This document shows, piece by piece, positions 12,001 to 18,000 of a stretch of DNA of 64,000 nt. The position numbers are program-made. The first letter of the stretch is position 1. Every line of letters begins with the position of its first letter. This DNA is from Escherichia coli (lineage in GTDB: Bacteria > Pseudomonadota > Gammaproteobacteria > Enterobacterales > Enterobacteriaceae): assembly GCF_003334405.1 (NCBI RefSeq), contig NZ_QOWM01000002.1; one strand, written 5' to 3'.

Positions 12001-15000
12001 GGCGAACAATGTGCGGGATCTGGGTGCTGGAAACGATGGTAATTCGCGAGTCATCCTCCATCCACGCCAGCGATGTTACGCTTTCCATGTGACAATGTTG
12101 AATAACGGGGGTCTGATAGTGCCCCTGTACCTGGTAGTCGGCGGCATCGATTGTTTGTTGGACATTACCCGTCGACATCGTGCTTTGTTTCAGTAAATTG
12201 CCACCGTTATGGATTGGTGCAGCGTCTTCTGCCAGCGCCGCTTCTGGCGTGGTGATAACGGGTAATTCTTGCCACTCAATGCTGACCAATTGCGCCGCTT
12301 TTTCTGCCGTGAGTTCATCGCGGGCCACGACGATGGCAACGGCGTCACCATGATGACGAACATGGCGAGTTAGCAGTGCGCGATCGGCGGTATCGCGCTT
12401 GTTTTCGTCAAGTGTCCAGGCATGCCCAGCTGTAGCGAATGGAATATCAGGCACATCTTCCCAGGTAAAAATCGCCAGTACGCCCGGCAAACTTCTGGCT
12501 TGTTCATCATTAATACTTACGGCATAACCATGTGCGATAGGGCTACGTACATATTTCGCATAACACATGCCCGCCATAACATAATCGTCAGTATATCGTG
12601 CCCGCCCGGTGACCTTAGCAATGGCATCGACGCGCATGCATGATTCACCCGTAGCGGTTGCTTCCCGCGCTTCCATAGAAATCCCCTCGATTTGAACATT
12701 TGGTTCTTATGGCAAAGATTTAGTCTAAGCAGGCAAGATTTACGCCAGAAACGACGATAAGCGTTAGGGGAGGTAGGAAGTGTGATGACGTTAAAAAAAC
12801 ACAGATATGATACGAAACAGGACTCTGAATAGGGGCAGTGATACGTATCAATATGAGTGGCGATAAAATCAATGTGATAAATTGGGATTATTACGCATCA
12901 GGATGGGAAATAGGGTAAAAAGTCAGGAAGTTCGATACCTCTACAGCGAATATTTTGCTGATGATACTTCCCTTTGCCAAATGAAATTAACCTCTTTCTC
13001 TATTACCACGTTTTTCCAGAAGCAAGAGATTGGGTATCAAGAGGCTGGCTGCTATGATAAGGCGTCTTGTTTTTTAAGCGAGGAAAGATTTTGAGTGCGG
13101 GACGCCTGAATAAAAAATCTCTGGGTATCGTGATGTTGTTATCGGTTGGACTGCTTTTGGCGGGCTGTTCGGGTAGCAAATCATCCGATACAGGAACGTA
13201 TTCCGGCTCCGTTTACACCGTGAAACGGGGGGATACGCTATATCGTATTTCGCGCACCACGGGAACCAGCGTAAAAGAACTGGCGCGACTGAACGGCATT
13301 TCCCCCCCTTACACCATTGAAGTTGGTCAGAAACTAAAACTGGGTGGGGCGAAAAGTAGCAGTATTACACGTAAATCAACCGCCAAATCAACGACCAAAA
13401 CCGCATCGGTTACACCGTCATCAGCGGTACCGAAATCATCCTGGCCGCCAGTAGGGCAACGTTGTTGGTTATGGCCAACGACAGGGAAAGTTATCATGCC
13501 GTATTCGACAGCAGATGGCGGCAATAAAGGGATTGATATCTCAGCTCCACGGGGTACACCTATTTACGCCGCGGGTGCAGGAAAGGTGGTGTATGTGGGC
13601 AACCAGCTGCGTGGCTACGGTAATCTCATCATGATTAAACACAGTGAAGATTACATTACGGCTTACGCCCATAATGACACGATGCTGGTAAATAATGGGC
13701 AAAGCGTGAAGGTTGGGCAAAAAATCGCCACTATGGGGAGCACGGATGCGGCATCTGTTCGCCTGCATTTCCAGATTCGTTACCGTGCAACGGCAATTGA
13801 TCCGCTACGTTACTTGCCGCCTCAGGGCAGCAAGCCAAAATGCTGATGGCGAATTAATCAGCAGTCAGCAGCGTGGCACTTGCTAAGGAGAGCGTAAGGT
13901 TTATAATGCCTTACGCATCTCGAAGCGGGCGTAGTTCAATGGTAGAACGAGAGCTTCCCAAGCTCTATACGAGGGTTCGATTCCCTTCGCCCGCTCCAAT
14001 TTATCTTCGCCGTAATACTTCCCCATTTTGTTGTAAATAAAAAGCGTTTACGCAATGCAATCCTTTTGTAACAACCCAGGTAAAACACCTTATTTTCAAG
14101 TTGTTAAATAAGTGGTTATCTACGCTTTTAACAAACGATTGATGGAATATTTTATGAAAGGGAAATCTGCATTAACTCTTCTGCTCGCTGGTATATTTTC
14201 GTGCGGCACATGCCAGGCGACAGGGGCAGAAGTGACGAGTGAATCTGTATTTAACATTCTTAATTCCACGGGGGCAGCAACAGATAAAAGTTATTTATCG
14301 TTAAATCCAGATAAGTATCCTAATTATCGTCTTCTGATTCACTCAGCCAAATTACAAAATGAAATAAAGAGCCACTATACCAAAGACGAAATTCAAGGAT
14401 TGCTAACATTAACAGAAAACACACGAAAGTTAACGTTGACGGAGAAACCCTGGGGAACGTTTATTCTTGCTTCTACTTTCGAAGATGACAAAACAGCGGC
14501 AGAAACCCACTATGATGCTGTCTGGTTGAGGGATAGTTTATGGGGCTATATGGCATTAGTATCAGATCAGGGAAATAGTGTAGCCGCAAAAAAGGTTCTG
14601 CTCACCCTGTGGGATTATATGTCTACGCCCGACCAGATTAAGCGGATGCAGGACGTCATTAGCAACCCAAAACGACTGGATGGAATTCCCGTGCAAATGA
14701 ATGCTGTGCATATCCGATTTGACAGCAACTCCCCCGTGATGGCAGATGTGCAGGAAGAAGGCAAGCCGCAGCTGTGGAACCATAAACAAAATGATGCTTT
14801 AGGTCTTTACCTTGATCTCCTTATACAAGCAATCAACACTGGTACTATTAACGCTGAAGATTGGCAAAAAGGTGACCGATTAAAGTCGGTTGCGCTGCTG
14901 ATTGCTTATCTGGATAAAGCCAATTTCTATGTTATGGAAGATTCCTGAGCATGGGAAGAAGATGCCCGATTAAACACATCTTCCGTTGCACTGGTGACCT

Positions 15001-18000
15001 CTGGACTGGAACGTTTGTCAAACCTACTCTCGAAGAAAGACTCTGTTTTTGTCTCTGATTTACTACGCGAAGCTAAAGTCAATGAACTGGATGAAACTCT
15101 TTCAACAACGAGGTTGAACCACCTCATAGATAAAGGTTATGAAAGAATAACGTTACAGCTTGATTTAGGGGGAGAATCCCCAGGTTATCTGGAAAAAGAT
15201 AAACATTACAGAGAAGCCGATGCGGCTTTACTTAATGTTATTTATCCTACAAATCTTTCAAAGATAAACACCAGAAGAAAAGAGCAAGTTCTAAAAATAG
15301 TTAAAAAACTAGCAGGTCCGTATGGTATAAAAAGATACGAGAAGGATAATTATCAGTCGGCAAATTTTTGGTTCAATGATATTAAAACCGATACCGATCA
15401 AAATTCGCATGCAAAAAGAGAAAAGAGCTTCATTCCATCAACAGAAGCAGAATGGTTTTTTGACTCATGGTATGCAAAATCAGCAGCAATTGTTTATAAA
15501 GAATCAAGAAAAGAAGAGTATTTGAATGACTCAGTACAATTTATGAATAGATCATTGGCCCAAATAACAGGCGAGAATATGATTGGTGCAAATGGCAGGA
15601 GCGTACCAGAAATGGCACTTCCCGAAAGCTATAACTATATCCACAAGTCGGGAACTTTGCATGAAGCGCCAAGCCCTATCATTCCGCTAAATTGGTCGAA
15701 AGCTTCAATGACTCTCATGTTGAAAGAGATGTCCAACCTTATCAATGATGAGGGAATTAAATAGTTTTCATAATGAGTTACAGCACAACGTTGGGTATTG
15801 ACTGAGCAAGATGAACGACAAGGACAACGACATCAGCCTTATGAGGAGCAAGAAAATGAAAGCAAATTCGAAAACGATCAGAAGGATGAAAGTTAATGTT
15901 CGGTCTGAGGAAAGTAAATCGAAACACTCATACGTTTGAAACCACTTTTCAAAATTGGAAAGAAAATGGCGAAGATGTTGCATTATTAATGCCCGAATTT
16001 AGTGCTAAATGGCTACCGATAGCAGAAGAGAGTGGCAGCTGGTCTGGATGGGTATTGCTTGGAGAAATATTTCCCTTAATTTCATCTGAGCTCGCTGGGA
16101 TGGCTTTAATGCCAGAAACGGAAAGGTTAATAGGGGAATGCCTCAGTTTATCCAGTTCCCCGTTAAATCTAAAGCATCCTGAACTAAAATATAATCGTTT
16201 GCGCGTAGGTAAAGTATTTGATGGAGTATTGAGCCCTGCTCAACCACTAATAAGAATATGGACAGGGGAATTGAATCTTTGGTTAGATAAAGTCACAGTC
16301 TGCCAATACGGAAACGCTCCAGCGTTAGACAAAAAATCGTTATATTGCTCCATTCATTTTGTAATTGGATTTAGTAAAACATGTTACAGAAGTCTTGTTG
16401 ATATTGAAGTTGGTGATGTTTTATTAATCTCAAATAATTTGGCTTATGCGGTTATTTATAATACAAAAATTTGTGATTTAATTTATCCAGAGGAGTTAAA
16501 AATGGCTGATCATTTTGAGTACGAGGAAGATTTTGAAACAGATGATTTTGATATCAAAAAAAACGAGAGTGAGATTTATGATGAAAATGACGATCAGATG
16601 ATTAATAGTTTTGAAGACTTGCCTGTAAAAATTGAGTTTGTTCTTGGTAAGAAAATAATGAATCTATATGAAATAGACGAACTCTGTGCAAAAAGAATAA
16701 TATCTCTGCTTTCTGAATCTGAGAAAAATATAGAAATACGTGTAAATGGCGCGCTAACTGGCTATGGCGAACTTGTTGAAGTGGATGATAAATTGGGCGT
16801 AGAGATTCATTCTTGGTTATCAGGGCATAATAATGTCAAATAGCATTTCGCTGATAGCTATACTATCATTATTTACACTATTGCCGTTTATAATAGCATC
16901 CGGGACATATTTTATTAAATTCTCGATTGTTTTTGTTATTGTCCGAAACGCGCTGGGGCTTCAGCAAGTGCCATCAAATATGACACTTAATGGGGTTGCT
17001 TTGCTATTGTCAATGTTTGTAATGATGCCGGTTGGGAAGGAAATATATTATAACAGTCAGAATGAGAATCTTTCATTCAATAATGTAGCGTCGGTTGTTA
17101 ATTTTGTTGAGACAGGCATGAGTGGTTATAAATCATATTTGATAAAATATTCCGAACCGGAGTTGGTTAACTTTTTTGAAAAGATTCAGAAGGTGAATAG
17201 CTCTGAAGACAATGAAGAGATATTCGATGATGATAATATTTCAATTTTCTCGTTACTCCCGGCATATGCGTTGAGTGAGATAAAAAGTGCATTTATTATA
17301 GGTTTTTATATCTATTTACCCTTTGTTGTAGTGGATCTGGTTATATCCAGCGTTCTGTTAACGTTAGGTATGATGATGATGAGTCCGGTAACCATATCTA
17401 CACCGATAAAATTAATTTTGTTTGTCGCGATGGACGGTTGGACAATGTTATCAAAAGGACTCATTTTACAATATTTTGACCTATCCATTAATCCCTGAGG
17501 AAAAAATATGGACGATATTGTTTTTGCAGGGAATAGGGCGCTGTATCTGATTTTAGTTATGTCTGCAGGACCTATCGCAGTTGCGACATTTGTTGGTTTA
17601 TTAGTAGGGCTTTTTCAAACGGTAACACAGTTGCAAGAACAGACGTTGCCATTTGGCGTGAAATTATTATGCGTAAGTATTTGCTTTTTTTTAATGAGCG
17701 GATGGTATGGCGAAAAATTATATTCTTTTGGTATTGAAATGCTGAATTTAGCATTCGCGAGAGGATAGCATGGGTGAGGCGATACTCTATCAGTTGCATA
17801 GTCTGCTGGCTGCTACAGCGCTCTGTTTTTGCCGATTGGCACCCACTTTCTATTTGTTACCATTTTTCGCCAGTGGGAATATACCAACAGTAGTCCGTCA
17901 TCCAATAATAATAGTGGTATCATGTGCATTAGTTCAGCATTACCACTATGAATTATTGAACTTAAATGAAATCGATATTGCTTTGTTCGCTGCCAGAGAA

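Follow-up and report, generated by a model that had tools for sequence, protein, structure and literature searches.

The gene ygeQ (pkgA) is a long-known gene of Escherichia coli. It is the outermost gene of the island for type III secretion system 2 of E. coli (ETT2) and stands beside the tRNA gene glyU. In EcoGene and in GenBank U00096 it is reportedly entered as a pseudogene of the glycoside hydrolase family 15 (GH15) within the ETT2 remnant. A full-text literature search for 'ygeQ' gave nothing substantive. Under the name pkgA, the gene is ECs3736/ECs3737 in O157:H7 Sakai, equal to b2863/b2862 in K-12, and its product is described as a 'phosphorylase kinase and glucoamylase' homologue (PMC3977695). 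PkgA has likewise been listed as a glucoamylase homologue and tentative ETT2 effector (PMC2808357). The copy in enteroaggregative E. coli (EAEC) 042 is EC042_3075, and the 042-type copy is treated as intact in the literature. Here, the ygeQ copy of another E. coli genome is analyzed. It lies in a stretch of 64,000 nucleotides from contig NZ_QOWM01000002.1 (assembly GCF_003334405.1), which is called the window below, and its reading frame is interrupted by a single TGA codon. All coordinates are those of the window, and the window allele is compared to that of strain TUM1887, which is intact (WP_000676938.1, 536 aa).

The K-12 gene (b2863) follows glyU at the same site, and its product is that of the window (WP_000676919.1). 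Over b2863 and the downstream fragment b2862, K-12 and the window are 100% identical in the initial 1,179 bases of the span 14112-15764, TGA included. This TGA is the standard ygeQ allele of the K-12 lineage. K-12 differs in that the 3' part of its gene is also severed, by the insertion sequence (IS) IS2 at window-equivalent position 15290, and in that far more of ETT2 has been deleted. The window, unlike K-12, keeps the whole 3' part of ygeQ. In O157:H7, pkgA is this same gene and occupies the same end of ETT2, but it carries a lesion of its own. In O157:H7 (YB14-1) a 5-bp deletion at window-equivalent positions 14712-14716 has inactivated ygeQ/pkgA independently, while codon 265 is kept as GGA. 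The split annotation as ECs3736/ECs3737 is explained by this deletion. In RefSeq, split copies are labelled 'ygeQ: protein YgeQ' plus 'hypothetical protein', and whole copies 'glycoside hydrolase family 15 protein' (536 aa).

The ygeQ copy in the window is best read as a fixed nonsense pseudogene that forms part of the mutational attrition of ETT2, a reading to which we assign a probability of about 0.93. The first-pass annotation of this DNA was unaware of the named ygeQ/pkgA locus and of the K-12-lineage TGA allele. It was nevertheless correct in describing a GH15-like secreted protein gene split by one in-frame stop. By translation, its two open reading frames (ORFs; 14112-14948 and 14994-15764) were found to share one frame, with a single TGA between them at 14946-14948. 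From 14154 to 15764 the frame comprises 536 codons with this sole internal stop, in the context ...FYVMEDS*AWEEDARLN.... The two motifs that had been pointed out are placed as described, WLRDS upstream and AWEE directly 3' of the stop. The 5' ORF is real as well, but the start proposed for it, GTG 14112, is replaced: the true start is almost certainly ATG 14154 (MKGKSALTLLL...), because the RefSeq annotation of identical DNA uses this codon and the homologues align from there. The features of the gene are as follows.

14154..15764, plus strand: ygeQ/pkgA, read as a pseudogene, full 536-codon frame broken at codon 265 (translation; RefSeq and literature names)
14523..14537, plus strand: WLRDS motif, with W124, R126 and D127 invariant (homologue alignment)
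14946..14948, plus strand: premature TGA in place of GGA (Gly265) (comparison with intact alleles)
14949..14960, plus strand: AWEE, with W267, E268 and E269 invariant; E268 is the predicted general acid, now 3' of the stop (alignment)
14949..15764, plus strand: orphaned 3' part, residues 266-536 (RefSeq name 'hypothetical protein')
15624-15626, plus strand: candidate base Glu491, in PESYN, within the orphaned 3' part

The two ORFs could in principle have belonged to unrelated protein families. Instead, a single Pfam GH15 match (residues 94-401) spans the stop, and full-length homologues align across it; the ORFs are therefore the halves of one gene. The codon that was lost could be read from the intact alleles. 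The TUM1887 allele differs from the window at 6 of 1,611 bases (99.6% identity). Three of these differences are synonymous, two are conservative (E117Q, I178V), and the remaining one, at position 14946, is the sole frame-breaking difference: T in the window (TGA) versus G in TUM1887 (GGA). Codon 265 of O157:H7 is GGA too. Gly265 is invariant, as are W267, E268 and E269, when 36 homologues of many different phyla, with identities down to 37%, are aligned. The named members of this alignment include Escherichia albertii, Yersinia enterocolitica, Commensalibacter, Elusimicrobiota, Planctomycetota, Synergistaceae, Clostridiales, a Bifidobacterium-named protein and Bdellovibrionales. Given GGA in the intact alleles and the invariant Gly265, the lesion is a G>T transversion that changes Gly265 to a stop, and this single point mutation accounts for the split, as the first-pass annotation had supposed. 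The premature stop thus stands where intact orthologues have a sense codon, and essential conserved parts are removed by it.

The course of events can be pictured as follows. The ancestral gene would have encoded an exported protein of 536 residues with a GH15-type (alpha/alpha)6-barrel. In one lineage, to which K-12 and the window belong, the G>T change turned the GGA codon of the invariant Gly265 into TGA. Translation would then end one residue ahead of the W-E-E motif, which bears the predicted general acid Glu268. At most, a 264-residue N-terminal fragment would be produced, consisting of the signal peptide and about half of the barrel. This fragment would contain neither of the candidate catalytic glutamates, and the 816 bases of the 3' part would be left untranslated. 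The mutation probably became fixed in the lineage through the general decay of ETT2, with IS2, IS421 and IS1 as later lesions. Of this course, the mutation with its ancestral codon and its distribution, the place of the gene in the island, and the fold and family of the protein are shown; that function was lost, how the protein is exported and what its glutamates do in catalysis are inferred. Before codon 464, the orphaned 3' frame offers no in-frame ATG. It also lacks a signal peptide, and no Shine-Dalgarno-like sequence was seen ahead of GTG 14994 or of TTG 15015 (the RefSeq start). Since the fragment lacks WEE and PESYN, and the 3' ORF lacks an ATG, a visible ribosome-binding site and a signal, loss of enzymatic function is expected.

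Several observations weigh against the pseudogene reading. RefSeq lists both pieces as coding ('protein YgeQ' and 'hypothetical protein') and not as a pseudogene. All TGA-lineage genomes that were inspected share one identical, undamaged 5' ORF of 795 bp, signal peptide included (WP_000676919.1). Furthermore, the IS2 and IS421 insertions fall downstream of this ORF, in the 3' part, which would also fit a retained 5' fragment. The exported 264-residue fragment, or both halves together, might on this evidence still be useful, for example in non-catalytic sugar binding. Such a role is very unlikely, however. The stop severs the (alpha/alpha)6 barrel after about half of its helices, with loss of the invariant WEE and PESYN, and half-barrels of this fold would not be expected to be stable; the 3' ORF, for its part, is without the means of initiation and export noted above. 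As the TGA lineage is nearly invariant in sequence, conservation of the fragment is uninformative. We would give equally little credence to the broader claim that ygeQ is not dead, with either the fragment or a low-level full-length readthrough protein being kept for function in the K-12 lineage. With 100% identity, the TGA lineage has had too little time for selection to become visible in either direction.

A full-length enzyme could still be made if the TGA were recoded, whether by selenocysteine insertion, readthrough or suppression. Among the stop codons of E. coli, UGA is the leakiest, which counts in favor of recoding, and the frame downstream of the TGA is still open in the window. Nonetheless, recoding is highly improbable at this site. 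The 60 nucleotides from the TGA fold at -12.5 kcal/mol (z=-0.04 versus shuffled sequences), and thus no structure like a selenocysteine insertion sequence (SECIS) is present. The ancestral residue is Gly and not Cys, and a Trp or selenocysteine inserted here would displace an invariant Gly beside a catalytic-type Glu. In many genomes with the TGA allele, moreover, the 3' part is disrupted by IS elements. A bacterial selenoprotein was considered separately as a candidate and rejected, given a structure no better than chance, the lack of an Rfam match at the site and the Gly in the homologues. An Rfam scan of 13800-16000 at E<=1 yielded nothing beyond the tRNA and a sub-threshold tpke11 match. 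The latter (13896-14014, minus strand) is antisense to the tRNA and scores 21.1 bits versus a gathering threshold of 43 (E=0.19); it is almost certainly a chance match.

A comparison across E. coli genomes, as the first-pass annotation had proposed, was made by megablast of 14112-15764 against 5,426 complete genomes. ygeQ was found in 3,989 of these genomes, in every case on the chromosome, and 1,437 gave no match. The part of the gene around the stop is present in 3,466 of the 5,426, with at most 17 partial matches. Alleles were counted by exact match of the 61-mer at 14916-14976. The TGA form occurs in ~945 of the 5,426 genomes, many K-12 derivatives among them, and the GGA form in ~1,656. 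The remaining copies are mostly GGA alleles with additional nearby single-nucleotide differences, for example in O157:H7. K-12, J53, NCTC9038, O141:H4 P13-6 and an ST361 isolate are among the TGA carriers. The TGA is a fixed lineage allele. One might still suspect a sequencing or assembly error in a single record, given that the TGA is a one-base difference, and nothing further speaks for such an error. With the exact 61-mer in ~945 independently finished genomes, the chance of this is practically nil, and sequencing error was discarded as a candidate on these allele counts.

The ygeQ copies of the TGA lineage are 100% identical in sequence, from which a recent and probably single origin of the mutation follows. 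On top of the TGA allele, at least three kinds of IS insertion were found: IS2 at 15290 in K-12, IS421 in TUM2805 and IS1A in WS4437A-1. The IS421 of TUM2805 is inserted after window-equivalent position ~15180, so that it lies, like the IS2 of K-12 (RV308), in the 3' part of the gene.

The intact protein bears out the GH15-like identity, both in the Pfam family PF00723 (Glyco_hydro_15) and in a structural model that matches GH15 enzymes as well as the alpha and beta domains of phosphorylase kinase (PhK). The PF00723 match of the intact allele is weak (E=2.9e-5, 23.6 bits), and the family is hit by 25 of the 36 homologues at E<=0.001 and by 33 at E<=0.1. YgeQ therefore represents a divergent GH15 subfamily. 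None of the NCBIfam families matched at its cut-off; TIGR01577 (oligosaccharide amylase) reached 15.2 bits versus a cut-off of 820.7. The AlphaFold2 (AF2) model built from the alignment is mainly helical and shows an (alpha/alpha)6-barrel, with a mean predicted local distance difference test (pLDDT) score of 89.6 and a predicted template modelling (pTM) score of 0.90. In a Foldseek comparison to the PDB, PhK beta and alpha occupied ranks 1-2, followed by the GH15 glycosidase 5z3a/7c24, glucoamylases, dextran dextrinase and glucodextranase. These matches, including the glucoamylases 1ayx/1gah/3eqa and the glucodextranase 1ug9, have a probability of 1.00 and template modelling (TM) scores of ~0.5.

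With the GH15 enzymes (glucoamylases, glucodextranase, 5z3a/7c24), YgeQ has in common the barrel fold, the W-x-R-D and W-E-E motifs and the weak but consistent PF00723 match. The relationship is nevertheless distant (10-18% identity), and neither a starch-binding domain nor an N-terminal beta-sandwich was identified in YgeQ. Among solved structures, the PhK alpha and beta D1 domains stand nearest to YgeQ in sequence as well as in fold. In a family-profile search of the PDB, the glucoamylase-like N-terminal domains of PhK alpha (E=3.6e-7) and PhK beta (E=9.6e-5) were the sole relatives. A search with the single sequence gave only a marginal PhK beta match, so that significance needed the family profile. 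D-x-G-x-W-E is aligned residue for residue between the two. In the profile alignment, ...ADFGIWER... of PhK alpha stands opposite ...EDSGAWEE..., and thus Gly265 equals Gly182, and Glu268 equals Glu185, of PhK alpha. Glu185 is one of the two catalytic glutamates of the PhK alpha domain (PMC10978961). The PhK subunits are, however, regulatory proteins of ~1,100-1,200 residues without detectable glucoamylase activity (PMC10978961). In comparison, YgeQ/PkgA is a single-domain bacterial protein that is predicted to be exported, and both of its candidate glutamates are invariant.

The description of AWEE as a catalytic-type motif thus holds, with W267, E268 and E269 invariant and E268 opposite the catalytic Glu185. 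WLRDS, too, proved to be an invariant family motif. It aligns with WVRDN of PhK alpha and corresponds to the substrate-binding W-x-R-D region of GH15; its counterpart in fungal glucoamylase is presumably YTWTRDS. E491 (in LPESYN) and the following PLNW(S/A)KAS are invariant in the homologue alignment. This segment resembles what we take to be the general-base Glu region of GH15, and E491 is named as a candidate base only. From these motifs, E268 is predicted to act as general acid. Judging by a ratio of nonsynonymous to synonymous substitution rates (dN/dS) of 0.086 between intact E. coli and E. albertii copies, at a dS of ~1.9 that is near saturation, purifying selection acts on the intact gene. 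Members of the YgeQ/PkgA family are common, with 254 matches at E<=0.001 among the scored candidates, distributed over many phyla. Among bacterial proteins, this family stands closest to the glucoamylase-like domains of PhK alpha and beta, in sequence and in fold alike, and none of its members has an apparent characterized activity.

The first-pass annotation had called the product secreted, and an export-type N-terminus is indeed seen by sequence heuristics.

14154..14222, plus strand: export signal, residues 1-23 (MKGKSALTLLLAGIFSCGTCQAT) (sequence and regex heuristics)

At the N-terminus of YgeQ, a Lys-rich start is combined with a hydrophobic core, and LTLLLAGIFSC (Cys17) fits a PROSITE-style lipobox by regex. 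Alternatively, cleavage may occur after CQA. The AF2 pLDDT is <50 at residues 1-24. Many of the YgeQ homologues have clear lipoboxes or signal peptides in the alignment.

Speculation in the literature makes PkgA an effector of ETT2 with the glycogen of the host as its target (PMC2808357, PMC3977695). This role fits poorly, because the signal is of the Sec type and homologues are found in bacteria without any T3SS (type III secretion system) close by. By heuristics, the protein does not look like a T3SS effector: it has a Sec-type N-terminus, and its homologues occur outside T3SS settings. No T3SS genes were found within 8 kb of the solitary homologues in Commensalibacter, on the Bifidobacterium-named contig and in GCA_027485695.1. 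The evidence suggests instead that the intact protein would be a Sec-exported periplasmic or outer-membrane glycosidase, possibly lipidated, which is more economical than an effector. If true, this would contradict the type III effector role that has been speculated for PkgA. The homologue in Y. enterocolitica (60% identity; 10001-11581 of its locus) is found near an invasin-like gene and remnants of Tn3-family transposases. A gene for a T3SS tip-complex protein (PF06511) is located ~10 kb from this homologue, which itself is outside any T3SS operon; its tie to a T3SS region is loose. Among the contexts in Commensalibacter, the Bifidobacterium-named contig, GCA_027485695.1 and Y. enterocolitica, no conserved neighborhood that would hint at the substrate was found; the four are unrelated.

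It had been left undecided by the first-pass annotation whether the gene is island cargo or older flanking DNA. Empty sites, composition and the listing in the literature all identify ygeQ as ETT2 cargo. In the ETT2-negative strains MS10860 and DP033, the order is actS-glyU-yqeG with nothing between glyU and yqeG. Their homology to the window ends at ~14062-14070 and resumes at ~32604. With the break at ~14063, the ATG of ygeQ at 14154 therefore falls within the island, ~90 bp from its glyU-proximal edge. The island has a GC content of 0.347 versus 0.511 in the flanks, and ygeQ itself has a GC of 0.40 and a GC3 (GC at third codon positions) of 0.37. The gene is thus inside the boundaries, missing from the empty-site genomes and island-like in composition. 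Upstream of it are actS/ygeR (13067-13846) and then the tRNA-Gly(CCC) gene glyU; downstream are remnants of type III secretion genes. The further features of this region are as follows.

13925..13998, plus strand: tRNA-Gly(CCC) gene glyU, the chromosomal anchor adjoining ETT2 (ARAGORN; Rfam tRNA, 71.6 bits; RefSeq annotation of identical DNA)
14063..32605, no strand assigned: degraded ETT2 island, ~18.5 kb (empty-site comparison, composition)
15777..15896, plus strand: what is left of the SpaN/EivJ needle-length gene, its C-terminal end (RefSeq annotation of identical DNA in NCTC9038, LR-24 and TUM1887)
Seven damaged island genes (NCTC9038 RefSeq annotation): YscQ/EpaO, EscU, PrgH/EprH, OrgA, a LuxR-type gene (ygeK), a lytic transglycosylase and the gene at the ygeF position

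The decay of the island extends well beyond ygeQ. A complete ETT2 measures 29.9 kb according to reviews, compared to ~18.5 kb in the window. Directly downstream of ygeQ the eiv genes have been deleted, with the EivJ remnant alone left; the complete arrangement is seen in O157:H7 and in E. albertii. In NCTC9038, whose DNA is identical to the island, the seven other genes listed above are annotated with a frameshift or internal stop. This picture agrees with the 'widespread mutational attrition' of ETT2 that Ren et al. put in the title of their 2004 paper (cited in PMC2808357). A scan for promoters and terminators over 13990-15900 gave counts that do not clearly exceed chance; upstream of the ATG it showed nothing promoter-like.

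In E. albertii the orthologue (8001-9617 of its locus; 76% protein identity) is located between actS/ygeR and the ETT2 genes, which continue with a GhoT-like gene, an AraC-type regulator, a secretin and others. The 76% identity and the dS of ~1.9 hint at an old divergence or at a separate acquisition of ETT2 variants. Such divergence presumably lies far above that usual for core genes of E. coli versus E. albertii. As a separate observation, 78 bp directly downstream of glyU are missing at 14006/14007 in the window and in the K-12 lineage, ~150 bp upstream of the ygeQ start. The same 78 bp are kept in other E. coli, including the ETT2-negative MS10860, which points to a lineage-specific deletion.

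Taken for what it is, the finding matters little: one locus has been tidied, and the result is real but ordinary. It is settled that the ancestral codon is GGA (Gly265) and that the gene belongs to ETT2. The two separate genes in RefSeq would be better flagged as a single pseudogene. For the species, the stop is a lineage marker in about one sixth of the finished E. coli genomes, and the locus adds one more example to the documented attrition of ETT2.

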